In this document: positions 33,031 through 56,424 of the stretch, piece after piece
Numbering within the stretch: position 1 is the stretch's first letter
Layout: every line of letters begins with the position of its first letter
NCBI GenBank assembly: GCA_022801925.1
Contig: JAAWTG010000008.1
Location: 2,619-66,618 of the forward strand
DNA: 64,000 nt
Direction of reading: 5' to 3'
DNA from: Clostridia bacterium
GTDB lineage: Bacteria; Bacillota; Clostridia; RUG12999
Position numbers and translations under genes: made by a program
Notes under the pieces: generated by a model
The model's database searches: none
What the model saw: only the letters and a program-made list of their open reading frames with translations
What the model was told of the DNA's origin: nothing

Positions 33031-35307
33031 TTACGTTTGCGATTTTCGATAGTTGCCCGGCGTTGTTCCGACTGTTTTTTTAAACAGGCGGATAAACGAG
33101 GTTGTATTGAGAAATCCTGTTTCCAGCGAAATATCGTCAATTTTTTTAGACGTACAGCGCAATAGTTCCTTTGCTTTTTCAATTCGCTTGTTGTTGATGT
33201 AGTTAACAAAACCCTCTGGCTGAATGGTTTTAAAAATTTTAGAGATATAAGGTGAACTGATGTGAAACTCCTGTGCTACCATGTTGGCACTGAGATCCGC
33301 ATCGGTATAATGCTCGTCAATATATGTCTTGATTTTCTTTGCCAGTGCCGCGGCACCGCTGTCGTTTGCCGCTTCAGTTTCCCGTTTGATTTTTGCACAA
33401 ATGCTTTCAATCAAATCATGAATACCGCTTTGAATAGCGCGGATATCAGCAGAACCGGTCAGTGTCAGTAAGTATATATCGTTGACCTTTTGATTATCGC
33501 TGCTAACGTAGTTTTGGAAATTTTTCGTAATCGTATTGATAAGGTCATGGATATAGTATTTAAACACAACAGGATTAAAGTTGATAGAGTGCGTGGATTG
33601 ATGAATGAGGTCGTCAACAAAGGCACATGCCTTTTCCTGTTCTCCGTATTTAATATAGTTGCATAATTGGCTGATTTTATCAATTCTGAAAAACAGCGGG
33701 TCTGTATGTTCAGCGGCAATATCCTCGTAAAATACAATATCGGATTCTCCTGTGAATTGGATATAGTCAATACAGGTAAACGCTTCGGCATATGCCTTAG
33801 ACAGCTCGAAAATATCGCCGTGCCATTCGCTGACGCCAGCAGAAAAATCTACGCTGAAATGCTGTTTCATCAAAGCGATAATTTCGCCCAGCACGCCGTC
33901 CAGCAGTGCGAAATCCTGCTGGGAACGCACGGCAATGAGCGCAATACAATTTCCGTAGCTTTCAAAGAAATAACTCTCCATGCCTTTGTCGTCCAACAGT
34001 TCCCGACCGATGTTGTCAATGATGTCCACCAGCAAATTGTAGCGCTCGAAATCAGAAATGTTTTCATCCTGAAATAAATCGGCGTAATGTTGCATGGGGA
34101 ACAGAATCACCACATTCGGCGGAGAGGACAGTTCGGGAGCAAGATATTTCTTGACCGTATCGCCTTGGATGTCGGAAATTGTGCCATTGAGTAATTTCGC
34201 CCAGAACGTATCTTTTAGCTGCCGGTTATGTTTTTCCTGAATGGTTTTTGTTTGCCGCAGCTGCTGCGCTGCATCTAAGATAAGTCCTTCAATTTGCGAC
34301 ATTTCGTTCTGGTCGCGATATTGTGTGGGAACCTTCATTAAAACTTTCCGAATCGGTGAATATTGGCGGTTGACCAGAAACCGTATAGCAACCATACCCA
34401 ATATCACAGCGATAAGCATAAGCAGCGACACGACATAAAAACTGTTAGAGGATGCATAATAGTAGGTTTTTGGCGTGTAGAACACAAAATGCCAGCCGGT
34501 ATCGGAGGAAGAGATATAGTTTGCTATAGTTGCCTGCTCGTTCAGGTTAAATTCAAACATTCCCTGTGGCTGTGTGAACTGTTCCGTCACACCCTGCGAT
34601 AAAGTGTCGGAAGAAAGTGTTGTGGCAAGCAGCATGTCAGAACGGTCAAATATTTCGTAGTTGATTTTGCTGTCTGCAATCATTTTGCCGAGTTGATAGC
34701 TAAAATAGGCGTCGCGAATCATGATAATCATGAATACATTATCAGAGGACAGCCGGTATTTAAACGTGACATATTTCGGCGAAACGTCCGTCAAAGAACT
34801 AGTACCCTTGACAATTTTAAATTCTTCATAGGGCGAGGATACCCATTCCTGCCAAGTGGGATAGTCAATATCCAGTCCAGTGTAGACGGAATTGAAAAAT
34901 TTTGCGTCCTCCTGCAGCCCTTCTGCACTGCCAACCGTACCGGAGTTACCATAATAAAAATAGAACTTATACGCATTATATAAGGTAAAATAATAGGGCT
35001 TGAGCGCTTCCTGAAACGAATGAATCATCTCGGGGGAAGCCTGCTGCGTTGCTTGAAGTGTACGGATAGCCAAAACATCTTGGTTAGTGGCAAGTTCAGA
35101 CGCAATGGTCTTATAACGACCGAGTTCCAAATCAATTTGCTGCTGCACATTTTGATAGAATACATTGTTTTTTTGATTCAGTTCCTGACGGATATTTTTC
35201 ATTAAATATTGATATGTAATATAATTGAACACAACCGGAATGATGAGTACAAAGAAAAAGGAACGCGACCATTTGGAAACCAGAGATGATTTTTGAAAAA
35301 AGTTCAA
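33031..35307 (-). CDS. Membrane-anchored sensor regulator with a C-terminal AraC-family HTH domain
   Basis: N-terminal TM segment, a large extracytoplasmic domain, a second TM, then AraC HTH x2 (...ISSPYISKIFK...TGFLNTTSFIRLFKKTVGTTPGNYRK). TTG start preceded by AGGAGG. Confidence 0.7.
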   Translation of the reverse strand: MNFFQKSSLVSKWSRSFFFVLIIPVVFNYITYQYLMKNIRQELNQKNNVFYQNVQQQIDLELGRYKTIASELATNQDVLAIRTLQATQQASPEMIHSFQEALKPYYFTLYNAYKFYFYYGNSGTVGSAEGLQEDAKFFNSVYTGLDIDYPTWQEWVSSPYEEFKIVKGTSSLTDVSPKYVTFKYRLSSDNVFMIIMIRDAYFSYQLGKMIADSKINYEIFDRSDMLLATTLSSDTLSQGVTEQFTQPQGMFEFNLNEQATIANYISSSDTGWHFVFYTPKTYYYASSNSFYVVSLLMLIAVILGMVAIRFLVNRQYSPIRKVLMKVPTQYRDQNEMSQIEGLILDAAQQLRQTKTIQEKHNRQLKDTFWAKLLNGTISDIQGDTVKKYLAPELSSPPNVVILFPMQHYADLFQDENISDFERYNLLVDIIDNIGRELLDDKGMESYFFESYGNCIALIAVRSQQDFALLDGVLGEIIALMKQHFSVDFSAGVSEWHGDIFELSKAYAEAFTCIDYIQFTGESDIVFYEDIAAEHTDPLFFRIDKISQLCNYIKYGEQEKACAFVDDLIHQSTHSINFNPVVFKYYIHDLINTITKNFQNYVSSDNQKVNDIYLLTLTGSADIRAIQSGIHDLIESICAKIKRETEAANDSGAAALAKKIKTYIDEHYTDADLSANMVAQEFHISSPYISKIFKTIQPEGFVNYINNKRIEKAKELLRCTSKKIDDISLETGFLNTTSFIRLFKKTVGTTPGNYRKSQT

Positions 35308-35403
35308 CTAGGATTCCTCCTTTGGTGACAAATTAATCATCATAGCCGCTTATGGGCTATGATGTGCTTTACTAAGCGAACGGAATCAGACTACTTTCTA
35401 GTC

Positions 35404-35557
35404 ATGGAATATCCGGACACGTGCCGGATATTCCATACCTCTCAGCCGTGAGCGTTTCGATAGGAACGCTGCGAGAGCGGACGCGGCTGCATGGGGGTGT
35501 CCACGAGGGGGACGGCTTGACAGAATATTTTACATTCTGGAAGGAGTCCCCCTCGTG
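35404..35557. repeat. GC-rich structured intergenic element, copy 2
   Basis: ATGGAATATCCGG-ACACGTG-CCGGATATTCCAT (35404-35436). CACGAGGGGGAC (35502-35513) pairs with GTCCCCCTCGTG (35546-35557), with the inner hairpin CAGAAT/ATTCTG. Confidence 0.5.
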
Positions 35558-35877
35558 ATGTAAATAGTATATCATAAAAAAAACTTTTTTTCAATTCCAC
35601 AGAATAAATTGCCTGATTGTACATTGCGGAAAAATAGGTAAAAAGTGCCGATTTATCGAGGTTTTGCGGAATCGGAGAATAAAATTAGTAAATCATTTGA
35701 TTAAAAAAAGTAAATTTTAAAAGGACTAAAATAATGAATGAAACGAGGGCGTATTCAAAATTTGTCAGCCGCAAATAAAATTCGTAAATTGAAATTCAAC
35801 ATGGCACCTTGTATAATAAAAACAGAACACGGACAGAGGGAAAATGTCCGGAAAAATCAGGAATGGAGGAGATTGGC

Positions 35878-36867
35878 ATGAAATCACAGACACTTGCCGC
35901 AGAAGGACGGGGACTGCTACGTAGCAGAAGAAATACCGTCGCTGGCGCACAGGTGGTGAAAAAATCAAAATGGCGTGCGATTTTAAGAAATTATGAACTC
36001 TACATATTTTTACTTCCCGCGCTTGCGTACATCGCTGTCTTTATGTATGCGCCAATGTATGGTGTATTGATGGCGTTTAAAGACTACAATATGGCAAAAG
36101 GAGTTATGGCAAGTCCATGGGTGGGACTGGAAAATTTCCGGCGTTTTTTTGCAGGATATAATTTTTGGACAACGCTCTGGAACACCTTAGCTCTAAGCCT
36201 GTACTATTTGGCGGCAACACTTCCGCTGCCCATTGTATTGGCGCTTATCTTCAATAATATTAGAACGGGCATGTTTAAAAAATCCGTTCAGATGATTACC
36301 TACGCGCCCAACTTTATTTCCGTTGTGGTTCTGGTGGGTATCATGAAAATCTTGATGACGCCGGAAACGGGCGTGTTTAACGTGTTGCTGACGAAGTTTT
36401 GCGGAGCGGGCGTGATTGACGTTTTCGGGAAACCGGAATATTTCCGTCATCTCTATGTTTGGTCGGGCGTCTGGCAGACGCTGGGTTGGAATAGCATCAT
36501 CTATGTGGCGGCGCTAGCGGGTATCAGTCCAGATTTATATGAAGCGGCGACTATTGACGGTGCGAGTCGACTGCAAAAAATCTGGTATTTGGAAATTCCA
36601 AGCATTTTGCCCACAGCAGTGATTATTTTAATTTTGAATACCGGCAGCGTGATGAATCTGGGATTTGAAAAAGTATATCTTATGCAGACACCCCTTAATT
36701 TGGCTGTTTCGGAAACCATTCCAACGTATGTTTATAAAATGGGTGTGATTGCAGGAGACTACAGTCTGGCAACAGCAATCGGACTGTTTAACTCGGTAGT
36801 CAGCGGCGTTTTGCTGGTGATTGTGAACTTCATATCCAAAAAGTTCAGCGAAACTTCATTATATTAA
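35878..36867 (+). CDS. Sugar ABC transporter permease (LplB-like)
   Basis: 6 TM segments and the EAA loop region. ATG at 35878 follows GGAGGAG. A TTGAAA-N17-TATAAT promoter lies at 35787-35815. Confidence 0.85.
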   Translation: MKSQTLAAEGRGLLRSRRNTVAGAQVVKKSKWRAILRNYELYIFLLPALAYIAVFMYAPMYGVLMAFKDYNMAKGVMASPWVGLENFRRFFAGYNFWTTLWNTLALSLYYLAATLPLPIVLALIFNNIRTGMFKKSVQMITYAPNFISVVVLVGIMKILMTPETGVFNVLLTKFCGAGVIDVFGKPEYFRHLYVWSGVWQTLGWNSIIYVAALAGISPDLYEAATIDGASRLQKIWYLEIPSILPTAVIILILNTGSVMNLGFEKVYLMQTPLNLAVSETIPTYVYKMGVIAGDYSLATAIGLFNSVVSGVLLVIVNFISKKFSETSLY

Positions 36868-36885: not shown

Positions 36886-37791
36886 ATGCTTGCTATTCAT
36901 AAAAATAAAGTAAGAGAACCGCTGGAGGACAGGGTTTTTGCAGGTGTCTCTTATGTAGTGCTGGCGGCGCTGGCGGTCATCTGTTTATATCCGCTCTATT
37001 TTGTGGTGATTGCGTCCATCAGCGACCCTGATGCAGTATATGCCGGAAAAGTCATTTTGTGGATTCAGGGATTCACCATGATGGGATATGAAAAAATATT
37101 CCAGAACGACATGATATTCCGTGGATTTTTCAACTCCGTGTTTTATACTTGCGTTGGTACCATCATCAATCTGGCAGTCACACTGCCGGCGGCATATGCG
37201 CTTTCGCGTAAAGATTTGGTGGGGCGGCGCGGCATTATGATTTTGTTTATTATCACCATGTATTTCAGCGGCGGAATGATTCCGACCTATTTGCTGATTC
37301 AAAATATTGGATTGTATAATAAACCGATTGTCCTCTTGCTATGTAATGCACTCGTGGTATATAATATGATTATCGCGCGGTCGTTTTTTGAGCAGACCAT
37401 TCCGGATGAACTGCTGGAAGCGGCGCGCATTGACGGCTGCGGCAACACACATTTTTTTGTGAGAATCGTATTGCCGCTGTCCAAGACAATGATTGCGGTT
37501 GTAGCGCTCTACTATGCAGTCATGCATTGGAACTCCTTTATGCAGGCACTGCTTTACATAGACGACCCGGACTGGAAACCGCTGCAATTGGTGCTGCGCG
37601 ATTTGCTGATTTCCACGCAGGCAATGGCACAGTTCATGCAGGGTGATGAATCCATTGTGATGCAGCAGAAACTGGTGAATGTCATGCAATATGGCATTAT
37701 TGTAGTAGCAATACTGCCAATGATGGTCATTTACCCATTTGTACAGAAACATTTTGTAAAAGGCGTTATGATTGGCGCAGTAAAAGGATAA
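36886..37791 (+). CDS. Sugar ABC transporter permease (LplC-like)
   Basis: 6 TM segments; EAARIDGCGNTHFFVRIVLP EAA motif. Confidence 0.85.
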   Translation: MLAIHKNKVREPLEDRVFAGVSYVVLAALAVICLYPLYFVVIASISDPDAVYAGKVILWIQGFTMMGYEKIFQNDMIFRGFFNSVFYTCVGTIINLAVTLPAAYALSRKDLVGRRGIMILFIITMYFSGGMIPTYLLIQNIGLYNKPIVLLLCNALVVYNMIIARSFFEQTIPDELLEAARIDGCGNTHFFVRIVLPLSKTMIAVVALYYAVMHWNSFMQALLYIDDPDWKPLQLVLRDLLISTQAMAQFMQGDESIVMQQKLVNVMQYGIIVVAILPMMVIYPFVQKHFVKGVMIGAVKG

Positions 37792-37825
37792 AAAAAGGAA
37801 AAAAAGAAAGGGGAAGAAAATCGTG

Positions 37826-39451
37826 ATGAAAAATTGGAAAAAAGCAGTGGCTGTTTTAACAGCGGTAATGATGGTAGGCGCTCTGGCAGCCTGCGGTGGC
37901 GGACAACAGGCAAACGCACCGGTAGAGGAAACAGGCGTAAACCAGACAGGATTCCCGATTGTGAACGACAAAATCACCATTAAAGTAATGGCGCCCAACT
38001 GGAACAACAGCAGAGACTATAATGAAAAGAAAGTCATTCAAAACTATGAAGAAAAAACGAATATTCATGTGGAATGGACTTATTTCACAGGAGATGCTTC
38101 GGAAAAACTGTCTCTTGCATTTGCGGCAAAGAATAACATGCCGGATTGCTTTTTGATGGCAGACCTGCCGTCCAGCACGGTGGATAAATACGGAGCGGAT
38201 GGTGTAATTTTGCCGGTAGAAGATTTAATTGAAAAATATGCGCCCAACATCAAGGCGGCGATTGACGAAGATACAGACGGCAGAAAAATGGCAACGGCAG
38301 CAGACGGACATATGTATGCAGTACCGTCTCTGTACCGCAGTCCGCAGGAACAAATCCGCGGCGAACAGTTCATTAACAAACAATGGCTGGATAAACTGGG
38401 CTTGTCCGTTCCTTCCACAACTGACGAGCTTTATACGGTGCTGAAAGCATTTAAAGAACAAGACCCCAACGGTAATGGACAGGCGGATGAAGTGCCGCTG
38501 GTAATGCAGTGGGATAACAACATCAGTGGTATTGCATCCCTGTTTGGCTCCTGGGGCGTTGGCAGCGCATATACAGGCGCTGGTGGTTCTTGTGAAGCGG
38601 GTCCCTTCTTCATCAAAGATGGGAAAGTGGTTGTAAGCAACATGCAGGAAGAATATAAAGAAGCGGTGAAATTCTTCCATAAATTATATTCCGAAGGTTT
38701 AATTAACATTGATACCTTCACCGGCGAAGCAAAAACCATTGAAGCAAAAATCAAAGCGGAACCCTATACAGCGGGAATGTTCAGCGGATGGGACACAGCC
38801 AGAGCGGGCGTGTTTTCTAAATCCTCTCAATATTATACAGAAGTACCGCCGCTGAAGGGCCCAAAAGGTGAACAGAACGTATTTAAACCGGTTTATGGCG
38901 TTTTTGCCAACAACTATATTTCGGCAACCTCCAAACATCCAATGGCAGTGATGCGCTGGATGGACGGTACGGCAGACCCGGATACTTCTTATGAATGGAA
39001 CACGGGAATGGTTGGAAAAGTGATTGAAAAAATTGATGGAAAATGGCAAAAACTGCCGGTTCCGGAAGGTGAGGACGAAGCGACTTTCCGTGGAAACGAT
39101 GTTTATCAGTTCCCTGTCATGGGTATCACAACAAGATGGTATAAAGAGAATGTCAATTTGACGAGTGAACCGCAGGCACAGTTTAGAATCAAAGTAAATG
39201 AACTCTATCTGCCCTATGCAAGCATGATGTCGGTAGAACATTTACACTATAATGAAAAACAGCGCAAAACACTGGAAGCGGTATTGCCGCAGATTGTGGA
39301 CTATTCCAAACAGAAAGAAGCGGAATGGGTAACAAACGGCAACATTGACGCAGAGTGGGATGCACATATCAAACAACTGCAAAATATGAACATTAGCGAA
39401 GTGCAGAAAATCATGCAGGAGGCATCTGATTATTGGAACAGTATTGATTAA
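37826..39451 (+). CDS. Extracellular solute-binding lipoprotein of a carbohydrate ABC transporter (LplA-like)
   Basis: Lipobox LAACGGG. 540 aa. Immediately follows the two permeases. Confidence 0.8.
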   Translation: MKNWKKAVAVLTAVMMVGALAACGGGQQANAPVEETGVNQTGFPIVNDKITIKVMAPNWNNSRDYNEKKVIQNYEEKTNIHVEWTYFTGDASEKLSLAFAAKNNMPDCFLMADLPSSTVDKYGADGVILPVEDLIEKYAPNIKAAIDEDTDGRKMATAADGHMYAVPSLYRSPQEQIRGEQFINKQWLDKLGLSVPSTTDELYTVLKAFKEQDPNGNGQADEVPLVMQWDNNISGIASLFGSWGVGSAYTGAGGSCEAGPFFIKDGKVVVSNMQEEYKEAVKFFHKLYSEGLINIDTFTGEAKTIEAKIKAEPYTAGMFSGWDTARAGVFSKSSQYYTEVPPLKGPKGEQNVFKPVYGVFANNYISATSKHPMAVMRWMDGTADPDTSYEWNTGMVGKVIEKIDGKWQKLPVPEGEDEATFRGNDVYQFPVMGITTRWYKENVNLTSEPQAQFRIKVNELYLPYASMMSVEHLHYNEKQRKTLEAVLPQIVDYSKQKEAEWVTNGNIDAEWDAHIKQLQNMNISEVQKIMQEASDYWNSID

Positions 39452-39522
39452 GAACTTGAAACATACGGCTTCCCGAACCCTTTTTCGGTTCGGGAAGCAA
39501 TCAGGAAGGGGAGAAAACGGAC

Positions 39523-42500
39523 ATGAAACGACATGCAAAGCGTTTTTGTGGAATACTTTTGCTCACGGCAATGCTGCTGGCAATGATTCCGGCAGGATTT
39601 GCCGCCGCAGCGGGGGTTGCCATGCCAACGGCTGATGTTGCGCCGGGACTCTATAGGGAGACCAAACAGGTTTCGCTGTCGGCAGCGGCAGGTGCAACGA
39701 TTTATTATTCCACAGATAATAAAATGCCGGACGAGACCTGCACAGAATATACAGGTTCCATCACAGTGAGTGAAACCACAAATATTTGTGCCATTGCGGT
39801 GGCAGACGGCGTGAAAAGCGACCCTGTCACGTTTACATACATCATCAAAGATGCAGAAGAACCGATTTTTCAATTTGTAGCAATGAGCGATATTCATATC
39901 GGCGACAGGACAAAAGACGCACCGCGGGTAAAGAAAGCGTTTGATGTGATTCAGTCCATTTTCCCGGAGCCGGATGCGATTGTTCATGTGGGCGACCAAA
40001 TCAACGACAACCACGTTGCCCATCCGGAACAGCCGGATCGCAGTGCAGACCATCAAATTGTGGTTGATATGCTGCAAAAAGAATTGCAAGACCGCAGCTT
40101 GACAGACAAAACCGACGTCAGCATGGTAATGGGAAACCATGACTCGACGGTAAGTAATATGCAGAAATACTATCCGGAAGAGTGGTATCCAACCTCCGGA
40201 CCGGGCTACTATCATAAAGTGATTGACGGCTATGATTTTCTGTTTTTGAACACAGAAAGCGCAAATCAGACGCAAGCAAATTGGTTAAGTGAAAAATTGC
40301 TGGAAATCACGAAAAATAAAACAGAGATGAACAAACCCATTTTTGTGGCGGGACACAGACCACTTGCAGGAACGGTGTTGGACAGCCAATATGCAGTGAA
40401 TGCTCCGGCAATCACGAATGTGTTAGCGGAATATCCGCAGGTAGTGGCGTTTTCGGGACATTCGCATATCAACATGAACGACGAAAAATCCATTCATCAA
40501 AAAAACTATACTTCTTTGAATACAGGTTCCATGAGTTATATTGAAATTGACCGTGGTAACAATTTTCAGATGCACACTAATGCAGGACAAGTGGCATCCT
40601 TTGAAATTCCTGTCACGCAGTGCTACTTTGTGGAAGTCTTTAGTGACCGTGTGGAATTTGACCGCGTGGCAGTGAACGCGGACTGGGGCGATGCCAGACC
40701 GCATTTTATCCCATCTGAACCCTTCAACAATACTGGTGTATCCATTGGAGAACGCTGGACGGTAGATATGACAGGCGACATTAAAAGCAAATTCCAATAT
40801 ACAGCAGAAAAACGAAAAGGCAGCGCGCCGACCTTTGCAGCGGATGCAAAAGTAACAGCAAAAATAGAAGGCGGCAAAGCGCTTGTAACTTTCTCTCAGG
40901 CGGAGGACGTGCAGAAGCTTCGCTATTATGAAGTAGCTATGCGCGATGCAGCAGGAAACGACGTCAAATCCATGAAGGTACTGCCGGAGCACTATTTCTC
41001 ACCGGTACCGCGTACATTAACCTATGAATTTACGGATATTCCGCAGTTTGGCGGCAGTTATACCTTTGGCGTCCGCGGCGTGGATACCTTTGGCAACCGC
41101 TCGGAAGCGATTGTCACGGAAGAAGCGGTGACTGTGCCGAAGTTGCCAGGGATTTTACCGACTTATCTGGTAAACGAGACATTCACCGAGGAACCGACAG
41201 ACGCGGCGACACAAGTAATGCCATTTGTAGACGCATGGAGCGGCGGACAGGCAACAATAAACTACAATAATGGAATGTGCAATCTGGTCAATGGTGGAAA
41301 TACAAACTTTGGTTTGGGAATGCCGCTTATGCCGGGAGATGGAACAACCGCTACGCCGACCGGACCTTTGATGGTAGAATGGGAATGGAAAGACGCTACA
41401 GGTGCAGGGGAAGAAATCCAAGCCTATTTCCGTAATGCGGCGGGTCAAAACTCATTTGTTGTCCGTGCTTATTCCGGTAGCTATAACTGCCGATTCATTA
41501 ATGCAAGCAATGGTTCCGGCAGTAACTGGGGTAGTTCTTCAGCGGCAGGATCCAATGCTATGACCAAGGTGCGGGTGCTGCTGAATAACACAGGAAGTGC
41601 AGCTTATGTAGATGGCGTGTGGCTGAATGGGACACGTATTGTCAGTGAACGTCAGACATTTCTCAGAGATGTTGGCGCTGGATTTTCAAAAATTATTTTC
41701 AGTCACAAGACAAATGGCTCAACGGGCGATACGGTATTTAATATAGATAATCTCAAGGTATGGGTGCCGGCGGCTTCCCAAGCGGCAAAATTAGCGGCGG
41801 AGGACGGTGCGGCGATTACTTTTGACGATATCAAAGGAACCAACGAAGCGGCGAATAATATCACGTCAGACTTGGCGTTGGCGGCGAAAACAGAAACAAC
41901 AAACGGTTTGATTGTCACAGGCTGGAAATCCAGCAATCCAGCAGTCATTGCGGCAGACGGTACTGTAACGCGTCCAGGACTTGGAGAACCGGACACAGAA
42001 GTGACTCTGACACCGATTCTGGGCGTACTGGATTTTGAAAACGAAACAGACGGCAACTATGCTACGGCAGAAGGAACGCCCATCACAGTGACGGTCAAAA
42101 CCACCGACACCACCGGCGGCATTCGTCCGGAGGATGTGAATGGCGTTGGATATTATGTCAACGAAACCTATGACGAGAAACCGACTGACCCACAGACGCA
42201 TTCCATTCCAAGCATTGGCACATGGAGCGGCGGCACGGCAGAATGGACTGTGGAAGATGGAAAACTGGCGATGGTACCGACGTCAACCGGTTATAATTTC
42301 AATATACAAATCCCCTTCATGCCGGGAGAAATGAAAGAAAATATCGTGCCGAAGGGCAAGGTATATATTGATTTTAAATGGCAACATGGTGCAAATGAAA
42401 CACAGACCGACCTTTATGTGCAGGGGTATGCAAGCAATCTTGTGAAGTTGATAGCAAAAAGCGGAAAACTAGAGGTAGCGTATTATGACGCAAGTAATAA

Positions 42501-45500
42501 ACTGCAAACCTATGCAACTTCTGCGAGCGGACTCAATTTTAATCAAATGAATCAGATTAAACTTTTGATGGATGTAAAAGCCGATGGAGCATCCACCTTG
42601 GAAGGCTTTTGGTTAAATGGAACGGAAGTCAAAACGGGATCCGTAACTCTTTATAAGAAAACGGGAACGGAAGATAAAGATATAGAAAGAGGACCGGCCG
42701 GCTTGGTTTCCTCTCGATGGGCAACAACAGGTACAAAACCCTACAAAATGTTAGAGTTTGATTATATGAAAACATGGCAGCCGGTAGAAGAACAGCTTGC
42801 GGCGAAAGCGGCGAAAGCGACGGTTACATTTGACAGCATTAAAGGCGCCAATACAGCGGCAGACAATGTTATGGGGAATCTGAAACTAGGGGGGGCGTCA
42901 TATGAAATTATAAATGGACTTTCTCTGGTCGGATGGAAATCCGGCAACGAAGCTGTTATTAAAGCAGATGGCACTGTAGTACGTCCTGCCTATGGCAGCG
43001 GCGATGTACAGGTGGCGCTGACGCCGGTATTTGCAATGCGCAACAGCGAAAACGAAGATGGCGTTCCCGAACTTGTCAAAGCAGACGGTACGCCGATTAC
43101 CGTAACAGTGAAAGAAGCAGGAAAACCAACGGACTTTAATGTGACATATTTAGTAAATGAAGATTTTGATACTCTGCCAACAGAAGCAGACGCAGCAACC
43201 CGTCCCATTCCGTCTGAATCGGCATGGAGCGGCGCGTCCGCTACGGTTGATGTGGCGGACAGTGCGGCTCGGTTGAAACTGGACGGCGGCATTGCAAAGA
43301 ACACACAAATGAATGTTCCTGTCATGCCGGGAGCAGCAGCAAGTACCATGCCGCGCGGAAAGAATATGATTGAATTTGAATGGAAACATCATGCAAATGC
43401 AACGCAAATCATGGTCTATTTGCAAGGGGCAAACGGACATGTGCTGAGACTGGAAAAGAGCGGGACGAGTACAATTATTAAAAAAGGAACCAACGGCAGT
43501 GCTTTTTCCGATGTAAAAACGTTAAGTAATCAGGTCTTTACAACTGATACAAAAGTCCGTCTGCAAATAGACACTTCGACAGAAGGTAAGACCTATTTGG
43601 AACAATTGTGGATTGGTGGAACACCAAAATTAGACAGTCGCGTGGAATTGTTTGATGCGGGTGATGGATTGAAGCAATTGATGTTTGCGCCCGGAAATAC
43701 GACTACCGGCGTAGGCGATATCGTGTGTAGCGTCAACTACATTAAAGCATGGCAGAGCGCACCGGCGCAGCTTGCAGAATATGTAGCACAAAATCCTGTG
43801 AACGTTACATTTGATAACATTAAAGGCGAGAACACAGCAGCGAACAATGTGACGAGCAATCTGCAAAAAGCAGATTTAGGTAACGGCTTGAAAGTGGTTG
43901 GCTGGAAAACCAGCAACGCGGCAGTCGTTGCGGCGGATGGCACTGTGACACGCCCTGCAAAGGGAAGCGGAGATGTTCAGGTGACTTTAACGCCGATGAT
44001 TGGAACAGAGGATATCACAGGCGAAGGAACAGACGGTTATATTTCTGTAGACGGTACGCCGATTACGGTTACGGTGAAAGAAGCTACGGGAGAAACAACA
44101 CCGACACCGACGGAAACAGCGACACCAACGCCCACGCCAACATCGGATACGCCCACGCCCACGCCGGTACCAGGCGAATCAAAATTGGCATATTTTGTGA
44201 ATGAACCTTTTGATACCCTGCCGACGGCGGCAGATGCGGCAACCAGACCCGTTCCGGTTGTAAGTGATTGGGGCGGAAAAGATTCCATAGTTCGGGTAAC
44301 CGATGGCGCGGTGCAGTTGGTTCGCGGCAGCAAAGCGGCGAACACCTGTCAATTGGACGTGCCGCTTATGACAGGTACCGGCACGGCAAGTATGCCGCGC
44401 GGCGAAAACATGATTGAATTTGAGTGGAACCGCAACAGTAAATCAACGCAAATGGCGGTTTATATCAAGGGCAGCGCAGGACACGCGATGAAACTGAATT
44501 GCACGAATAATTCCATGGCAATTCAAAGCTCCCAAACCGGTAAACCAAATGCCGGTGAATTTACCACCTTGGCAACGGTAGACAATCTCAATTTGGGCAG
44601 CGGCTGGACAAAAGTCCGGTTGAAAATTAATTCAACAGGAACAAGTACCTATCTGGAACAAGTTTGGGTGAACGGCGAAGCGAAACTGTCGTCAAAAGCA
44701 GTGCTGTTTGACGTTGGGCAAGGATTGCAGCAGATGATGTTCTCGCCAGGTAACGGTTCTGTAGGTGCAGGAGAAGTGATTGTCAGCCTGAACTATTTAA
44801 AAACATGGCAAAGCGCAGCGTCTCAAATTGCGGAACTGTCCCAAGGCGCTGTCACCTTTAACGATATCAAAGGTACAAATACGGCGGCAGACGCTGTAAC
44901 AGCAAATCTGGATTTCAGTAAAACGGAAATCGGCGATTTCAGAGTACAGGGCTGGAAATCCTCCAACGAAGACATTATTGCGGCAGACGGCAGCGTGACG
45001 CGTCCGCTGATTACGCAGAACGACGCGCAGGTGGTGCTGACGCCGATACTGGGCATGGCGGACACGACAAACGAAGGCGACGGCACTTGGGTCTATGGCG
45101 ACGGCGCACCCTTGACAGTCACCGTGAAGAAAATGGGCGCGGCGGACGCGGTTGCACGGGTGAAAGCAGAGCTATCCTTTGACGACATCAAAGGTATCAA
45201 CACGGCGGCGGACAGTGTGACGGATAATCTGGACTTTATTCGGGAACTGAACGGCGTAAACATTCAGTGGAGTGTGCAGTCCATGACGCCTTCCACAACA
45301 ACGGCAAAAGTGGACGGCGCAACCGGCATGGTGGTTCGTCCGCAGATGAATGAAAGCGATGTGACCGTTGTATTGCGTGCGGCGCTTACCTGTGAGGGTG
45401 CGTCCGACACCAAAGACATCACGGTAACACTCAAGAAACTGGACGTATCCGCAGAGGAATATCTGCGGCAGTTGGCGGACAGTCTGACCTTTGCGGAAAT

Positions 45501-49946: not shown

Positions 49947-52900
49947 ATGAAAGGAAAACGAATTCTGACCGGACTGCTGCTGGCGTCTTTGCTGGCGGCG
50001 GGTTTCCCAGCGGCAGCGGAAGAAATGCCGGAAGCGGTGCAGCCGGAACTTATTCAGCAGGAAAAAACAGAGATGGTTAGCGTATCCGAAGGAGAAGACG
50101 GCGGCGCAGAAGAAACAGAAGACCCAGTGCTGGCGTTTGAAGATATCACAAGCAAAACGGGCATTTCAGACGAAACTTTCTATGGAAAATATGACGCGGC
50201 AACGGATACTTGGACGGTGAAACCCTATTTTAACTACGACAAATATCCCGAGATGGCGGCGGTAAAACAGGCGGCTATGCAAGTGACAGACGGCGACTAC
50301 AGCACCGTGAAAGAAGAAATTCTGCAATACTACCGTGACAAACGGAGCCGTCAAAACGTTCCCATGCAGGGGTCACCCAACACGCAGGCAGCATTTTTCG
50401 GTTATGCGATGAAAAAGAATTTCTATTTTCACCCCAGTTGGCCCATGCTCGGATATTTTAACGTAAACGGAACGCCGGACTACTATTCCGTAGATGTGAC
50501 CCACCAGTGGGACAGCATTAAAACAGCGCCCGACCACGTGGTATCTATGATATTGATGGCGTCGGAGAAGGACGGCAACACGGCTGAATTTGAAAGCAGA
50601 CAGGGAGCGCACCCGCCTATTCTGGAGGTGGAATCCAACGGCGTTGTCACCACGCTGACGGCGACAAAGGACGCAACTGTCATTGCGGGCAGCAGCGACA
50701 GCAAAAACTTTGGCAAAGAACCGACGCTGTTGGTGGAGGAAAGCGCAACGACAATTGGTGCAAGTGAACCGACGGACAGCAACACCAAACGGTCGCATAT
50801 CCAGTTTGACATCTCGGACATCAGTGTCACGGACGCGATTACCAGAGTGACATTGAAGGTCTATGGCAGAAACGCGACTTCGGACGAAGAAAAAGAAATT
50901 TTTGCAATGAAAACGCCCAACAATGCTTGGGAAGAAGACGTGATTACGTTTTACAGACTGGATAAAACGCAGGCATATGAACACATGGCGTATTCATGGG
51001 ACAAAGAGGACAGTGTTCGCTATATGCGCCCGAAATATCAGGGTTTCCGTCTCCGTGAGGAACTGGAACGGTTTGAAACATGGTTCCCCATGATGCTGGG
51101 CATGTATATACAAGGGACGGAAAACAATGAGGACTATGCCTATACGGCGATTCGTCATTGGGTGGGCTGGCTGAACCAGTCGGGTACCAATCCAAAGGGA
51201 CCGGGCTATGTGATTCCGCTGGATCATGGCTGCCGCAGTATTGCACTGCCGCGGGCGTTTGCATGGCTGATTATGTCGGAACATATGACGCCGGACGTGT
51301 GGAGCGCCACGCTGAAATATATGTGGAAAAGCGGCGACATCATGGTGACAAATAATTATGCCATCAACGACCCCAACAACGCGGGCGTTGTGGCGGCGCG
51401 CGGACTGCACATGATGAACTGCTACTATGACGAATTTGCAACCTATGACAAATGGCTGGCAAAGACGCGTACCAAAATTCAAACAGTGGCAAACGGCAGT
51501 CTGATTGACGCGGAAGGCGGCTATGGAGAAGGTTCTTTGGCATATGCTTCCATGACGGTTAACAACATGTTTGGATATACAACACCTAACACAGATACCA
51601 ATGTACAGGATTTGCCTTTCAATAACCGTGCTGATTATGACAAGGTAGAAGATTTGGCGGTTTATCTCATGGATATGAGTATGCCCGGCTATAAAGACAG
51701 TCAATGGGGCGATGGCGCTGAGTATACGACCGGATATACAGGACCGTTCCGGACGGTATTGCAGGAATATGACAATCCCCATTTGAAATATGCTGTCGGT
51801 GAAGAAGGCGGCATGGTTCCTGACTATACTTCAGTGCTTTACAAAAACTACCGCCGTATGGTAATGCGCAGCGGTTGGGGAGAAAATGACAATTATCTGT
51901 TTACAGATTTGGACGGCGCGACAGTGCAGCATACGCATAAAGATGATAATAGTATTATTGTGAAAGCCTATGGACAATATTTGCTCAGCGACCAGCTATT
52001 CTTTTCCTATGGAACAGGAACAGTCAAGAATTATCTGGAATCTACTCGCGCACACAATACCATAGAAATTGACAACGCCAGCCAAGGAACGAAAAAGCGC
52101 GGCAATGTGAAATATTGGGAAAGCAATGATATCTATGACCACACCACCAATGAATCGCTGGCATATCAGGGCGAGAAAAATGAGAAACATACCCGTGATA
52201 TCCTGTATGTTCGTCCGGGATTCTGGATTGTGGGCGATTATGTGAAACCTACCGATAGCGACACAGCACAGCATAACTATAAACAACATTGGCATATGCT
52301 GCCGGATGCGAACATTTCGTTGGACGAAGGAAGTCTGACCACAAGAACGAATTTCGGCGGTGCGGCAAACATTCAAATTGTGCAGGCGAATCCGGAGGAC
52401 ATGGACGCAAAGCTGAACAACGGTTATTATATCGGAACCACAGCAGATTACGTGACCTATGAACAGCAAGCGGTGGGACCGGTCATTTTCAACACGGTAT
52501 TATATCCGGAAAAAGCGGGCGCAAATGTGGAAGTGACGGCAGAAACGCTGCCGCTGGAAAACGTAGAAAACAACGGCGTAACGGCAATGCATATCAATAT
52601 TGATAACCATACGGACAATGAATTCGTGCGTGCTGATTACTATTTGGTGCACGATGAAAAACAAAAAGCGGTGCGCAGTTTTGCAAACTATGAAACCGAT
52701 GCGCGTAGCGCATATGTGGAACGGGACGCGCTGGGCAATCTGACCCGCTTGATTGTGCAGGGCGGAACCTATGTGAAAGATTTGGATAAAAACGTGTGTT
52801 TGTTCAAATCAAAGACCCCAGTAGAACAAATTGGGTTTGGATTGTCCTATGGAACCGTTACCCGCGACACCTCAGCAAACGTGGATATGGAAAAACTGAC

Positions 52901-53807
52901 GGTTTATGCAGACAACACAAGCGATATTGTGAATGTATATGAGGGTACCAAAGGCGCAAATGCCGTGAAAACGCCGGTTTCCTATAAAATGTCGGGACGG
53001 TATATCTATTTTGGCGCTGCGCCGGTTGAAGAAGAAACCGAGAGACCGGATGTAACGCCAAAACCGACGCCGACACAAAAACCGGATTCCAACGTAACCG
53101 GTGGAATTTCCGGCGGCGGAGGCGGTGGTGGAGGCGGTATTGGCAGTGTGAAACCGCAGGAGACGGTAACACTGCCTATAGTGACGCCAAAGCCAACAGA
53201 AACAGGTGATGTAACCCCGCCGCCTACGGTGACACCCAATCCGACAGAGCAGATGAAAAAGGAATTGCAGGGACATTGGGGCGAAGCAGAACTGCTTGAA
53301 ATGGTAGATAAAGGCATTTTGAAAGGCAGCGGCGGCACATTGTCGCTGGAAGCCCCTGTCACAAGATCGGAGTTTATCACCATGCTGGTGCGCGGTCTGG
53401 CGTTGGAAACAAAACCATATGCGGGCGGTTTTGCAGACGTGACGGAAAACGACTGGTTTGCAGAATATGTCCAGACGGCTGTAGAGCACGGAATTGCATC
53501 CGGTATGGGTGACGGAACATTTGCAGGCGACAAAATCATCAGCCGCGAGGAAATGGCAAAAATGCTGGTGAATGCATTTGAAGCGGCAGACGAAGGCAAA
53601 ACAGCCTTGGGTGAAACAATGAGCTTTGGCGACAGCGCAGCAATCAGCGGTTGGGCGCTGGAATATGTGGAAAAAGCCGCAGGCTACGGACTCCTACAAG
53701 GAGATGAAGAAAAACGGTTCCGGCCGCAAAGCGGCGCGCAGCGCGACCAAGCTGCTGTGGCAGTCGGACGTATGCTGGGAAAGTTGAAAACGCATAGTGA
53801 AAATTAA
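49947..53807 (+). CDS. SLH-anchored heparinase II/III-like polysaccharide lyase family protein
   Basis: Signal peptide. Alpha-toroid region, then HTHKDDNSIIVKAYGQYLLSD...ESTRAHNTIEIDNASQ (heparinase II/III-like C-terminal signature). G-rich and PT linkers. Three C-terminal SLH repeats. Confidence 0.6.
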   Translation: MKGKRILTGLLLASLLAAGFPAAAEEMPEAVQPELIQQEKTEMVSVSEGEDGGAEETEDPVLAFEDITSKTGISDETFYGKYDAATDTWTVKPYFNYDKYPEMAAVKQAAMQVTDGDYSTVKEEILQYYRDKRSRQNVPMQGSPNTQAAFFGYAMKKNFYFHPSWPMLGYFNVNGTPDYYSVDVTHQWDSIKTAPDHVVSMILMASEKDGNTAEFESRQGAHPPILEVESNGVVTTLTATKDATVIAGSSDSKNFGKEPTLLVEESATTIGASEPTDSNTKRSHIQFDISDISVTDAITRVTLKVYGRNATSDEEKEIFAMKTPNNAWEEDVITFYRLDKTQAYEHMAYSWDKEDSVRYMRPKYQGFRLREELERFETWFPMMLGMYIQGTENNEDYAYTAIRHWVGWLNQSGTNPKGPGYVIPLDHGCRSIALPRAFAWLIMSEHMTPDVWSATLKYMWKSGDIMVTNNYAINDPNNAGVVAARGLHMMNCYYDEFATYDKWLAKTRTKIQTVANGSLIDAEGGYGEGSLAYASMTVNNMFGYTTPNTDTNVQDLPFNNRADYDKVEDLAVYLMDMSMPGYKDSQWGDGAEYTTGYTGPFRTVLQEYDNPHLKYAVGEEGGMVPDYTSVLYKNYRRMVMRSGWGENDNYLFTDLDGATVQHTHKDDNSIIVKAYGQYLLSDQLFFSYGTGTVKNYLESTRAHNTIEIDNASQGTKKRGNVKYWESNDIYDHTTNESLAYQGEKNEKHTRDILYVRPGFWIVGDYVKPTDSDTAQHNYKQHWHMLPDANISLDEGSLTTRTNFGGAANIQIVQANPEDMDAKLNNGYYIGTTADYVTYEQQAVGPVIFNTVLYPEKAGANVEVTAETLPLENVENNGVTAMHINIDNHTDNEFVRADYYLVHDEKQKAVRSFANYETDARSAYVERDALGNLTRLIVQGGTYVKDLDKNVCLFKSKTPVEQIGFGLSYGTVTRDTSANVDMEKLTVYADNTSDIVNVYEGTKGANAVKTPVSYKMSGRYIYFGAAPVEEETERPDVTPKPTPTQKPDSNVTGGISGGGGGGGGGIGSVKPQETVTLPIVTPKPTETGDVTPPPTVTPNPTEQMKKELQGHWGEAELLEMVDKGILKGSGGTLSLEAPVTRSEFITMLVRGLALETKPYAGGFADVTENDWFAEYVQTAVEHGIASGMGDGTFAGDKIISREEMAKMLVNAFEAADEGKTALGETMSFGDSAAISGWALEYVEKAAGYGLLQGDEEKRFRPQSGAQRDQAAVAVGRMLGKLKTHSEN

Positions 53808-53867
53808 TATAGGCAGAAGCCGAACCCGAGCGGGTTCGGCTTCTGTAAGCAAAGGAGGAAATTTTAC

Positions 53868-55232
53868 ATGAAACAGATGCCGATAGATGATAACATTTTA
53901 AATGGGGTGCATGGATTCACAGACGAAGCGCACTATGTGCAGCCGGAAGAGCCGGTACGGACGAAATTAGAATGGTTTCAGGATCAAAAGCTGGGACTCA
54001 TGATGCATTTTGGTCCCTACGCGCAGCTTGGTATTATGGAATCGTGGGGACTCAGCGACTATGACGCGCACTGGTCGCGTGAAGGGATTGACTGGGCGAA
54101 AGGCGGAAAAGAGTTTCGGGAGAAATATTTCGCACTGAACCGTTCTTTTTACCCGATTTGTATGCAGCCGCAGCAGTGGGCGGAAACCGCGGCGGACAGC
54201 GGTTTCAAATACCTCATTTTCACCACCAAACACCATGACGGTTTTTGTCTGTGGGACACGCAGCAAACAGATTATAAAACGACAGCGCCGAGTTGTCCGT
54301 TCCACAAAAACCCAAATGCGGACATTGTGAAAAGTGTGTTTCGGGCGTTCCGCGCAAAAGGGCTGGGCATTGGCGCATATTTTTCCAAACCGGACTGGCA
54401 CAGCCGTTATTACTGGACGCCGGGCATGGAACACAGCGAAGAAACATGGCGCAACCCTTCCTACGATGTCTACGAATATCCATGGATTTGGGAACAGTTT
54501 GTGCAGTTTACGCACCGTCAAATGCTGGAATTGATTGGGGAATATGGAAAAGTGGATATTTTGTGGCTGGACGGCGGACAGGTCAACCCCAAAATCGGGC
54601 TGGATATCCGCCTGCATGAAATTGTGCCGAAACTGCGGGAAATTCAGCCGGAATTGATTGTGGCAGACCGGACGGTAGGCGGTGCTTATGAAAACTATGT
54701 CACGCCGGAACTCACTATCCCTGAAAAGCCGATGAACATTCCATGGGAAAGCTGTCTGACAATGGGAAGTTCGTTTGCCTACCGCTATGACGATACCTAT
54801 AAATCGGCAGAGAAAATTGTGCATTTGCTGATTGAAATTATCTGTAAAGGCGGCAATCTGGCGCTGAACATTGCGCCGGAACCAACAGGACGGCTGCCGC
54901 GTCCGGCTTTGGAACAGTTGAAATCATTAGGAAGCTGGATGAAAACCTATGGCGAAGCAGTTTATGGTACGCGTATTTGCGCGCCCTATAAAACGTCTCA
55001 GGCGGCATTTGTACAGAAAAACGGCGTTATTTATGCGTTTGTGCTTGCGCAGGAAGGCGTTTTTGCAGAAAAAATATTGCTGCAAGTTTCTGATATACGC
55101 CGCGTAAGCGCAGTGGCAGACGGAAAAGAAATACCGTTTGAAGCGGGTGTACAGGGCATTACAATTGACCGCCAAAACTTGCCGTCAGACAGCGCGGTTC
55201 CGTCTGTCAGCGTGTTGCGGCTGGAGCGCTAG
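53868..55232 (+). CDS. Alpha-L-fucosidase, glycoside hydrolase family 29
   Basis: TKHHDGFCLWDT and the surrounding GH29 catalytic region. No signal peptide. Confidence 0.85.
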   Translation: MKQMPIDDNILNGVHGFTDEAHYVQPEEPVRTKLEWFQDQKLGLMMHFGPYAQLGIMESWGLSDYDAHWSREGIDWAKGGKEFREKYFALNRSFYPICMQPQQWAETAADSGFKYLIFTTKHHDGFCLWDTQQTDYKTTAPSCPFHKNPNADIVKSVFRAFRAKGLGIGAYFSKPDWHSRYYWTPGMEHSEETWRNPSYDVYEYPWIWEQFVQFTHRQMLELIGEYGKVDILWLDGGQVNPKIGLDIRLHEIVPKLREIQPELIVADRTVGGAYENYVTPELTIPEKPMNIPWESCLTMGSSFAYRYDDTYKSAEKIVHLLIEIICKGGNLALNIAPEPTGRLPRPALEQLKSLGSWMKTYGEAVYGTRICAPYKTSQAAFVQKNGVIYAFVLAQEGVFAEKILLQVSDIRRVSAVADGKEIPFEAGVQGITIDRQNLPSDSAVPSVSVLRLER

Positions 55233-55362
55233 ACAGCGAATCTGTTCCTGCTGCAAAATGAAAGAAAGCGGTTTGGTATGGGGCGAAAATATTGTGCTTG
55301 ACAGAGGCGGTGAACTGGGATAAAATAGTCGTAAAGAATTTGCAAAAGGGGAAAATAGCAGA

Positions 55363-56424
55363 ATGAAAAAGCTGGAAGAAATTGACCGTAATTTTGCGCA
55401 GAATAATGATAATATCGAGCTTGTTTTTTACGATATCCGCAAAGAACCGTTTCAAATCTATGGGTTATATGAACCGCGAAAGGAAGGCGCGTTCCGGCGG
55501 TTTCCCGAAGAAGTGGCACGGCGGACGAGTGAAGGAGTCTACGAACTTCACACCATGACGGCGGGCGGCAGAGTGCGTTTCCGGACGGATTCGGCGCGTA
55601 TTGCAGTGCGCGCTTCGGTAGGAACGGTTTGGCCTATGGCGCATATGCCGCTGGCGCTGAATGCCGGATTTGCGCTTTATGAAGTGCGTGGCGGTGAGGA
55701 ACGGTATTTGAAAACATTTTTGCCGCCGGTAGACGTTGCGGGCAGCTATGAAACATCAATCGAGGTGGAAGGGCAAAAAGAGCGCGACTTGATATTGTAT
55801 TTTCCCGACTACGGCGGCGTGGAGAAACTGGAAATCGGGCTGCTGCCGGGCGCGTCGCTTGGCGCAGGAAGCGCCTATGCAAACCCGCTGCCGGTCGTTT
55901 TCTATGGTTCTTCCATCACGCAGGGCGGCTGCGCGTCAAGACCGGGCAACGACTATGTGGCAATGCTTTCCCGCCGGTTGCACGGTGATGTTTTGAATCT
56001 TGGATTTTCCGGCAATGCAAAAGGGGAGACGGCAATGGCGGAATATATTGCGTCGCTGCCCATGCGCGCGTTTGTGTTTGACTATGACCACAACGCGCCG
56101 GATACTGAACACTTGCGGCGGACACATGAACCATTTTTCTGTATCATTCGTGAGCGGCAGCCGGAATTGCCGGTGGTGTTTGTCACGCGTCCCAAGCCGG
56201 AACTAAACGCGGAAGAAGTACAGCGGCGTGCCATTGTATTTGAAACCTATCAAAACGCCGTCCGTGCAGGCGACAGGCATGTATACTTTGTCAGCGGCAG
56301 TCAAATGTTCGCCCGTGCGGGCGGCGGCGACTGTACGGTGGACGGGACGCACCCCAATGATTTAGGCTTTTTCTATATGGCGGAAGCCATTGGCGCGGCG
56401 CTGGAAGAAGCGCTGTGCGGATAA
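55363..56424 (+). CDS. SGNH/GDSL-type hydrolase (putative carbohydrate esterase) with an N-terminal beta-sandwich domain
   Basis: Block I VVFYGSSITQG, GxND-like GNDY, and DGTHPND near the C-terminus (the catalytic D..H). Confidence 0.6.
   Translation: MKKLEEIDRNFAQNNDNIELVFYDIRKEPFQIYGLYEPRKEGAFRRFPEEVARRTSEGVYELHTMTAGGRVRFRTDSARIAVRASVGTVWPMAHMPLALNAGFALYEVRGGEERYLKTFLPPVDVAGSYETSIEVEGQKERDLILYFPDYGGVEKLEIGLLPGASLGAGSAYANPLPVVFYGSSITQGGCASRPGNDYVAMLSRRLHGDVLNLGFSGNAKGETAMAEYIASLPMRAFVFDYDHNAPDTEHLRRTHEPFFCIIRERQPELPVVFVTRPKPELNAEEVQRRAIVFETYQNAVRAGDRHVYFVSGSQMFARAGGGDCTVDGTHPNDLGFFYMAEAIGAALEEALCG

Follow-up and report, generated by a model that had tools for sequence, protein, structure and literature searches.

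A predicted polysaccharide-harvesting locus with three SLH-anchored surface proteins in an uncultured gut Clostridia bacterium

Two kinds of described system come closest to the locus reported here. In Paenibacillus sp. JDR-2, multimodular depolymerases anchored by S-layer homology (SLH) domains are combined with ABC import and intracellular hydrolases in an established strategy (PMC4765114), and the genome table for this strain includes CBM/alginate-lyase/heparinase/3SLH and CCT/PHP/BIG3/3SLH proteins (PMC4765114). In gut Firmicutes, the concept of the Gram-positive polysaccharide utilization locus (gpPUL) was set out by Sheridan et al. 2016 (PMC5320581), and gpPULs for glycosaminoglycans (GAGs) that contain PL12 lyases have been predicted in silico in Roseburia hominis (reviewed in PMC9067506). 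We analyzed a 64,000-nucleotide stretch of a Clostridia bacterium genome (assembly GCA_022801925.1, contig JAAWTG010000008.1), referred to below as the window, with particular attention to a group of genes at positions 33031 to 56424. Judged from gene content and gene order, this group is a real polysaccharide-harvesting cluster of an uncultured, Oscillospiraceae-related gut Clostridia bacterium. It is probably a gpPUL that harvests an acidic, uronate-containing heteropolysaccharide. An original prediction made from the DNA letters alone had proposed one functional unit of the Gram-positive PUL type, and this is supported by the presence of a regulator, an ABC importer, surface enzymes, and cytoplasmic finishing enzymes. 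The same prediction held that the system has no described equivalent, which is too strong given the published JDR-2 strategy and the in-silico PL12 gpPULs. The general design is known; the lyase lineage, the partner family of approximately 900 aa, and the exact gene combination and substrate are uncharacterized.

The locus shares with JDR-2 the combination of CBM-like modules and triple SLH domains, and the sequence of release at the wall, ABC import dependent on a solute-binding protein (SBP), and cytoplasmic finishing. The characterized JDR-2 systems use GH10, GH16, and GH13 enzymes on neutral plant glycans, whereas the depolymerase of this locus is a lyase. It also differs from JDR-2 in belonging to uncultured anaerobic gut Clostridia and in having a conserved non-catalytic SLH partner of ~900 aa. 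As in gpPULs, a regulator, ABC transport, and carbohydrate-active enzymes are found in one locus, and for acidic glycans a pairing of a PL12-type lyase and an unsaturated-uronyl hydrolase has been put forward there as well. SLH triads are absent from the reviewed gpPUL descriptions, whereas here there are three SLH proteins, the AraC sensor is membrane-bound, and the lyase is far more divergent and carries a CBM96 domain. The lyase resembles the PL12 heparinase III enzymes (Pedobacter HepC, 4MMH; Bacteroides BT4657, 5JMD) in its toroid, beta-sandwich, and Asn/Tyr/His set, but differs from them in its 18–19% identity, its CBM96/DNRLRE domain, and an alanine at the position equivalent to His295. 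The Bacteroides heparin/heparan sulfate PUL offers a further parallel, with a surface endo-lyase that feeds an importer and a GH88 enzyme that finishes the products. In contrast to that system, anchoring is by SLH domains rather than by an outer-membrane lipoprotein with SusC/D, and sulfatases and PL13 or PL15 partners are not part of the locus. SLH-bearing pectin enzymes have reportedly also been described in Monoglobus pectinilyticus, which plays no part in the evidence used here.

The cluster consists of eight plus-strand genes and a divergently transcribed regulator. The original prediction of nine co-directional genes therefore becomes eight, the ninth being the regulator. The regulator gene occupies 33031–35307 on the minus strand and is separated by an AT-rich, divergent intergenic control region (35308–35878) from two ABC permease genes (35879–36867 and 36886–37791), an SBP gene (37823–39451), a giant SLH protein gene (39523–47127), a second SLH protein gene (47207–49915), the lyase gene (49947–53807), and genes for a GH29 alpha-L-fucosidase (53868–55232) and a GxDLY/SGNH esterase (55363–56424). 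Gaps between the eight plus-strand genes are 18–130 bp in the open reading frame (ORF) listing. The GH29 protein is identical on eight metagenome contigs, which also show the same gene order from the giant SLH gene to the SGNH gene, and gene calls on these contigs were used to correct start positions. Lengths of 926 and 1300 aa given earlier for the second and third SLH proteins are longest-ORF artefacts; the true lengths are 902 aa (start 47207) and 1286 aa (start 49947). Nearly all of the predicted domain assignments, including the divergent AraC sensor, the importer permeases, the three consecutive SLH proteins, GH29, and SGNH, were confirmed with Pfam. A GH123-like glycosidase gene (31132–32865, minus strand) directly beside the regulator had been overlooked. 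Together, the AraC regulator, the two permeases and SBP, and the lyase, GH29, GH123-like, and SGNH enzymes give this locus the gene content of a gpPUL.

The lyase is the central enzyme of the cluster. It is 1286 aa long, with a CBM96/DNRLRE domain at about residues 235–350, N-terminal to the region that aligns with heparinase III, followed by Hepar_II_III_C; its SLH region comprises two stretches detected by Pfam, and the profile covers the entire Sap SLH domain. Single-sequence searches of the PDB with the lyase, and with the phosphoesterase region of the giant protein, returned SLH matches only or nothing. A profile built from 15 lyase homologues matches PL12 heparinase III structures (4MMH/4MMI, 4e-21; BT4657 5JMD, 2e-19). 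An AlphaFold2 (AF2) model, with a pLDDT of 76.9, has the PL12 arrangement of an (alpha/alpha)n toroid and an antiparallel beta-sandwich. The best Foldseek matches to this model are 4MMI, 4MMH, 5JMD, and 4FNV (E ~1e-20, TM(target) 0.58–0.64, 18–19% identity), followed by PL39, PL17, PL35, PL15, PL40, and PL21 lyases. In 4MMH, Tyr294 and His424 serve as catalytic base and acid and Asn240 as neutralizer (PMC12088678). In the profile alignment Asn240, Tyr294, and His424 correspond to N478, Y533, and H662, which are invariant in the 15 homologues and are encoded on the plus strand at 51378–51380, 51543–51545, and 51930–51932. The heparinase II/III-like assignment made earlier is thus borne out by a fold nearest to PL12 heparinase III and an invariant catalytic set, and from sequence and model we conclude that the protein is a genuine, if distant, PL12-like enzyme predicted to act by beta-elimination. 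It may represent a deep PL12 subfamily or a new PL family.

To examine conservation, we mapped the window proteins onto the loci of relatives (labelled L002 to L031 below) using phmmer together with gene calls. Lyase homologues of 47–96% identity occur only in metagenome-assembled genomes (MAGs) of uncultured Clostridia, with the mouse iMGMC catalogue, deer rectum, and 'Ructibacterium sp.' among the sources. NCBI places 'Ructibacterium sp.' in the Oscillospiraceae, and the genome matches fit the initial guess of an Oscillospiraceae or Clostridia origin. The conserved core runs from the AraC regulator through the two permeases, the SBP, an aBig_2/F5_F8/SLH protein (the giant protein in the window), and the ~900-aa SLH protein to the CBM96-Hepar_II_III-SLH lyase, and this order is kept in other MAGs down to 47–50% lyase identity. 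Because gene order recurs on independent metagenome contigs and core order recurs in diverged MAGs, the grouping, as judged from these sequences, exceeds chance. A lack of co-conservation had been named as one observation that would refute the original prediction; co-conservation therefore holds for the core and fails for the phosphoesterase. The aBig_2/F5_F8/SLH protein varies in length (339, 1011, 2534, or 2855 aa), and its 339-aa form, consisting of aBig_2 and SLH, is found in the deer-rectum MAG RGIG9115 (L011/L017). The Ructibacterium sp. MAG CBCTHE01 contains two diverged copies of the SLH triad (L016 and L018).

Several observations were made in passing on these related loci. In L016, genes for a GH95-F5/8C fucosidase, a PL8 lyase bearing a Cu_amine_oxidN1 domain, and a GDSL esterase come after the triad. 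In a Hadza gut MAG (L023, 13836–22268), a lyase homologue of 25% identity precedes GH94, GH95, and a glycyl-radical enzyme (PFL-like plus Gly_radical), which could serve the metabolism of fucose-derived propanediol; a 258-aa ORF directly downstream is a possible activase. Adjacent ORFs of 725 and 501 aa in L027 (5110–8743), the second beginning with a run of X, resemble a single additional, SLH-free lyase paralogue that an assembly gap has split. In the deer-rectum MAG, permease 2 is followed by the first SLH protein with no intervening SBP gene (about 6037–7210). Stalk-like Cu_amine_oxidN1 domains recur in secreted proteins, both in the window (23480–25000) and in L011 (14096–15187), L016 (17738–20476), and L028, and may provide an alternative surface-attachment module in this lineage.

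The 902-aa protein encoded upstream of the lyase begins with an SLH trimer, and its other ~700 aa are small OB-like beta-barrels. Its C-terminal ~700 aa have no Pfam match (a scan at E<=1 gave sub-threshold noise only), an NCBIfam scan gave no family-level names, and internal sequence repeats were not detectable. We considered an enzymatic role and rejected it, as no catalytic fold was found. The original prediction had described this region as unassignable, which stands as far as Pfam is concerned; the region can nonetheless be described as non-catalytic OB-like beta-barrels and as a member of a large uncharacterized family. An exhaustive HMMER search with the C-terminal 713 aa found 2307 representative clusters at E<=1e-3, of which 1026 have E<=1e-10 and 138 have E<=1e-30. 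Nearly all matches are 860–920 aa long, and the match begins near residue 200.

We sampled six distant members of this family, at 21–30% identity (L025–L030). Each of the six has sugar ABC-transporter genes or SLH-anchored enzymes in its locus, in most cases together with an AraC-type regulator. The member in L025 is accompanied by a GDSL esterase and Pectate_lyase_2; that in L026 by GH88, a GDSL-CBM96-F5/8C-SLH protein, a Hepar_II_III-SLH lyase, GH130, and PL8; and that in L027 by GH29, a Hepar_II_III-SLH lyase, GH88, and GH43. In L028 the neighbors are permeases, an SBP, another SLH protein, Polysacc_deac_1, and GH3, while L029 contains an AraC regulator, an aBig_2-SLH protein, GH88, permeases, and an SBP. 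The L030 member is located between permease genes and an SBP-like gene, upstream of a Hepar_II_III-SLH lyase. A profile search placed a further member in L023, beside the 25%-identical lyase. On the strength of these neighborhoods, the 900-aa family is a large, unannotated, and regular component of such loci. We infer a structural or glycan-capturing role in the S-layer. As a non-catalytic surface protein encoded beside an endo-enzyme and transporter genes, it resembles the SusD proteins and surface glycan-binding proteins (SGBPs) of Bacteroidota PULs; it has no sequence or fold relation to them, so the analogy is functional only.

The 758-aa regulator contains HTH_18 (9e-18) and HTH_AraC domains, and a GGDEF_2 match is sub-threshold. 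In the predicted topology, hydrophobic segments at residues 9–27 and 284–302 bracket a domain of ~260 aa on the outside of the membrane. Its gene has a TTG start and a GGAGGA ribosome-binding site, and orthologues are present in relatives L009 and L011. The ORF of permease 1 (BPD_transp_1, 1.5e-10; UgpA/MalF-like) opens at 35809, but the likely start is the ATG at 35879, which is preceded by GGAGGAG; the protein is 323–334 aa long in relatives. Permease 2 is UgpE/MalG-like (BPD_transp_1, 1.4e-12). Pfam at E<=1 gave sub-threshold noise only for the 542-aa lipoprotein encoded next. From its PDB matches to family-1 SBPs (5G5Y, 7e-62) and to AlgQ1/AlgQ2 (~1e-35), and its lipoprotein signal ending in LAAC, it is clearly an SBP of the large LplA/AlgQ-like kind, and AlgQ1/2 are binders of acidic oligosaccharides. 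Of the predicted CUT1/LplABC-type sugar importer, the locus encodes two MalF/G-type permeases and a lipoprotein SBP; an ATPase gene is not among its genes. ATPases shared between importers are common in Firmicutes. A perfect 12-bp GC-rich hairpin occupies 39468–39498, after the SBP stop codon and before the giant SLH gene begins; it has no T-run on the plus strand and may be an mRNA-stabilizing or attenuating element that sets the ratio of SBP to enzymes.

Signal prediction found no signal peptide in the GH29, SGNH, or GH123-like proteins. The GH29 protein matches PF01120 (2e-79, profile positions 13–345 of 345) and PDB 6GN6 (7e-57). The SGNH protein, a candidate de-O-acylase, matches Lipase_GDSL_3 (1.6e-34) and GxDLY (1.2e-24) in Pfam and PDB 4LHS (3e-33), and its translation contains the block I and block V motifs as 'YGSSITQG' and 'DGTHPND'. 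A promoter-like site is present at 55298–55326, upstream of its gene. In GH123 enzymes, an adjacent Asp-Glu pair is catalytic. The GH123-like protein scores 83 bits against a cut-off of 23.1 for PF13320 GH123_cat (3e-23), and in its best PDB match, the OR/MR beta-N-acetylgalactosaminidase 8K2J (4e-32), 'ADEP' aligns with 'LDEP', although only the C-terminal half aligns well. The 8K2J enzyme belongs to a set described in PMC11087588. These sequence matches suggest a candidate beta-N-acetylgalactosaminidase and the presence of beta-HexNAc in imported fragments. A GH88-like gene (25475–26593, minus strand) lies outside the cluster. It had been placed 25 kb upstream, but ends 6.4 kb from the regulator. 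Its product matches Glyco_hydro_88 (3e-13) and is 48% identical over its full length to the GH88 that adjoins the lyase paralogue in L027; on this homology it is a candidate unsaturated uronyl hydrolase and probably a trans-acting partner.

These components suggest a model for the system that builds on the domains, predicted fold and topology, conserved catalytic residues, and synteny described above; in it we infer co-regulation, the substrate, the part played by the 900-aa protein, and the following order of action. The membrane-spanning AraC-type regulator would sense an extracellular product and switch on the divergent operon. SLH trimers would pin the three surface proteins to a wall polymer. 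The repeated lectin-like, aBig_2, and discoidin modules of the giant protein would hold the polysaccharide, with an active-looking metallophosphoesterase also present in the closest clade, and the ~900-aa OB-barrel protein would serve as a non-catalytic structural or glycan-capturing partner. The PL12-like lyase (N478/Y533/H662) is predicted to break 4-linked uronate bonds by beta-elimination. The resulting oligosaccharides would be bound by the AlgQ/LplA-like SBP and imported by the two permeases, powered by an ATPase encoded elsewhere, and would then be dismantled in the cytoplasm by the GH29 fucosidase, the SGNH esterase, the GH123-like beta-HexNAc-ase, and the nearby GH88-like hydrolase.

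The original prediction named a fucosylated, acylated, uronate-containing glycan as the substrate, and this class gains support from the diverged lyase and 900-aa loci. Fucosidases occur there as GH95 (L016, L023) or GH29 (L027), esterases as GDSL proteins (L016, L026), and uronate-related enzymes as GH88 (L026, L027) and PL8 (L016, L026), with GH88 adjoining the lyase paralogues in both L026 and L027. The recurrence of fucosidase and esterase functions through non-homologous enzyme families supports a fucosylated, acylated uronate glycan. The polymer itself could come from the host, as a GAG-like polymer, from bacteria, as an exopolysaccharide or wall polymer, or from the diet.

Several points weigh against a gpPUL for an acidic heteropolysaccharide. 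The GH29 and SGNH genes are not kept beyond close relatives: GH29 is present in every relative of at least 75% lyase identity for which downstream flank sequence is available, SGNH only in relatives of at least 92% identity, and the accessory set is fluid. The GH123-like gene beside the regulator is visible in one relative only, the deer-rectum MAG (L011/L017). We rejected the GH88-like gene as an operon member, as a PF03601 membrane protein gene and tadA-like, MatE, and Ham1 genes, housekeeping genes among them, intervene between it and the locus. The search of the 64-kb window yielded neither an ABC ATPase nor a sulfatase. The lyase, at 18–19% identity to the PL12 structures, is too distant from them for specificity to be deduced, and the position of heparinase III His295 is occupied by Ala534. 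Finally, the role assigned to the 900-aa protein is putative.

One alternative is that the locus is a PUL for host GAGs, equipped with a true heparan-sulfate/heparosan or chondroitin-type lyase. In both sequence and fold, the lyase matches PL12 heparinase III best, and PL12 gpPULs have already been proposed in gut Firmicutes. The best structural relative of the GH123-like protein, 8K2J, is probably NgaDssm, for which the family paper reports a preference for GalNAc4S. The SBP falls in the AlgQ-like group that binds acidic oligosaccharides, and all relatives come from gut MAGs. Heavily sulfated GAGs are argued against, however, because no sulfatase was found in the window, and GH89 and beta-glucuronidase are also not present. 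The low PL12 identity also counts against this alternative, and the paralogous loci, with their GH29/GH95, GDSL esterases, GH94, GH130, GH43, and PL8, are better suited to heteropolysaccharides that are branched and acetylated or fucosylated than to linear GAGs. We regard a host GAG as an unlikely substrate and prefer a fucosylated, acylated, acidic heteropolysaccharide.

A second alternative concerns the giant SLH protein, which had been described as a calcineurin-like metallophosphoesterase with four tandem modules and a discoidin domain. Pfam, motif inspection, and phmmer all agree with this description. The protein is 2534 aa long and, after the signal sequence, contains a CHB_HEX_C domain (39640–39840), the metallophosphoesterase (39871–40722), an Fn3-like domain, the modules, aBig_2, F5_F8_type_C, and SLH. 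A blastp self-comparison gave nothing useful, whereas phmmer with single modules resolved four tandem units, each of a lectin-like module of ~230 aa plus aBig_2, at 41155–45135. The ~230-aa modules have a Laminin_G_3 match that is sub-threshold only (E 0.056), a hint of a ConA-like fold. There are seven aBig_2 domains in total, some beyond the tandem units, with F5_F8_type_C at 45787–46101 and three SLH stretches at 46570–47124 in Pfam. The Metallophos domain (residues 117–316, 4.6e-13) has all of its metal-binding motifs (DxH…GD…GNH[D/E]…H…GHxH) intact: D123/H125, G157-D158, G204-N-H-D207, H278, and G312-H-S-H315. The N-terminal 540 aa, comprising CHB_HEX_C, Metallophos, and the Fn3-like domain, share ~40% identity, across 97% of their length, with secreted stand-alone proteins from Cytobacillus, Metabacillus, Neobacillus, Streptomyces, and Microbacterium, which are often fused to Laminin_G_3. 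A phosphoesterase profile finds only remote structural relatives (Rv0805/Icc, Mre11, and GpdQ), and the close homologues are uncharacterized.

It could be argued from this architecture that the locus targets a phosphodiester-bearing polymer (teichoic- or teichuronic-like, a phosphorylated capsule, or phosphomannan-like) and that the metallophosphoesterase is an essential partner of the lyase. The cassette has every catalytic motif and is fused to a glycan-binding scaffold, its remote structural relatives Rv0805, GpdQ, and Mre11 are phosphodiesterases, a GH125/GH76 cluster is found no more than ~3 kb from a Metabacillus homologue, and Paenibacillus JDR-2 has an analogous CCT/PHP/BIG3/3SLH protein. 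The distribution of the cassette points the other way. It is restricted to the closest clade, at a lyase identity of at least 75%, while relatives at ~50% identity encode the same protein as a 1011-aa or 339-aa version without the Metallophos cassette and keep the remaining locus. Sequence comparison thus indicates that the phosphoesterase is a clade-specific N-terminal fusion. Because orthologous loci lack it, the system is not defined by a phosphorylated substrate. In addition, the closest cassette homologues (~40%) are stand-alone secreted proteins of soil Bacillaceae and Streptomyces; in the one context examined, Metabacillus L031, the homologue is outside any lyase/ABC-importer operon, and no characterized relative of the cassette defines a glycan substrate. 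The phosphodiester component of the original prediction is accordingly weak, and we regard an obligate phosphodiester polymer as quite improbable.

The Metabacillus sp. locus (L031, 7001–14638) was also noted for its own sake. It contains the closest cassette homologue from a cultured organism, located near a GntR/LacI regulator and within ~3 kb of the GH125/GH76 cluster, which is of the alpha-mannan type, with a 5'-nucleotidase gene upstream. This neighborhood is a weak hint of glycan-phosphate chemistry.

Returning to the enzyme at the center of the acidic heteropolysaccharide reading, the heparinase-II/III-like protein might instead resemble the uronyl C5-epimerases in function, or might act as a hydrolase or a binding protein. 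Its fold is shared by dermatan sulfate epimerase 1 (6HZN), the loops of the AF2 model include low-confidence regions, and the alanine noted above replaces His295. Against this, the catalytic Asn/Tyr/His set is invariant, the top fold matches are all lyases, and GH88, which requires lyase products, recurrently adjoins the paralogues. A function other than that of a lyase is hence very unlikely. Least credible, and scarcely to be entertained, is that there is no functional unit, the three SLH proteins being S-layer or cell-envelope proteins of the ordinary kind encoded beside a sugar transporter: their N-terminal SLH and long beta-rich regions have the classic S-layer layout and scans for promoters and terminators do not demonstrate a single transcript, but gene order is kept across diverged genomes, the six sampled distant 900-aa members and the L023 member are all in sugar-transporter or SLH-enzyme loci, and one genome has two copies of the triad.

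Glycan foraging by gut Firmicutes is far less understood than the Sus-type systems of Bacteroidota. The locus provides testable candidates in the form of a PL12-like lyase with identifiable catalytic residues and a very large unannotated SLH family of ~900 aa, both from lineages for which metagenomes are the sole source. Were the substrate and the function of the partner established, they would reveal the way in which S-layer-anchored systems take hold of acidic polymers of host, dietary, or bacterial origin; should nothing unusual be found, the locus is one more gpPUL. Speculatively, and with clear doubt, the locus could exemplify a widespread, undescribed class of gut-Clostridia PULs with an SLH trio, in which the ~900-aa protein is a SusD/SGBP-like component devoted to capturing glycans or handing them on, the lyase founds a new family active on fucosylated, acetylated acidic polymers such as bacterial exopolysaccharides and wall polymers, and the fused phosphoesterase of this clade removes phosphodiester substituents.

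The flanks of the window hold further features. General scans of the window ORFs found no gene (CsaB) for the pyruvylated secondary cell-wall polymer to which SLH domains would anchor. Phosphate-related genes are present on both sides of the locus, at 217–7038 (pst-like permeases and ATPase, a Phytase-like esterase at 3383–4942, and a response regulator with a HisKA kinase) and at 58518–61966 (ppk and ppx). We considered the pst, phytase-like, and ppk/ppx genes as partners of the phosphoesterase and rejected them; the pst block is 30 kb away. The ppk/ppx pair also follows the locus in L002 and in L007, the latter without the SGNH gene. Between positions 6000 and 14000 the GC content is low, at 0.357–0.386 compared with 0.44–0.52 elsewhere. 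This stretch contains an HTH_3 regulator (8205–8849), a phage-type integrase (8940–10220), and a DUF1848 protein (12254–13201), and is probably an integrated mobile element.

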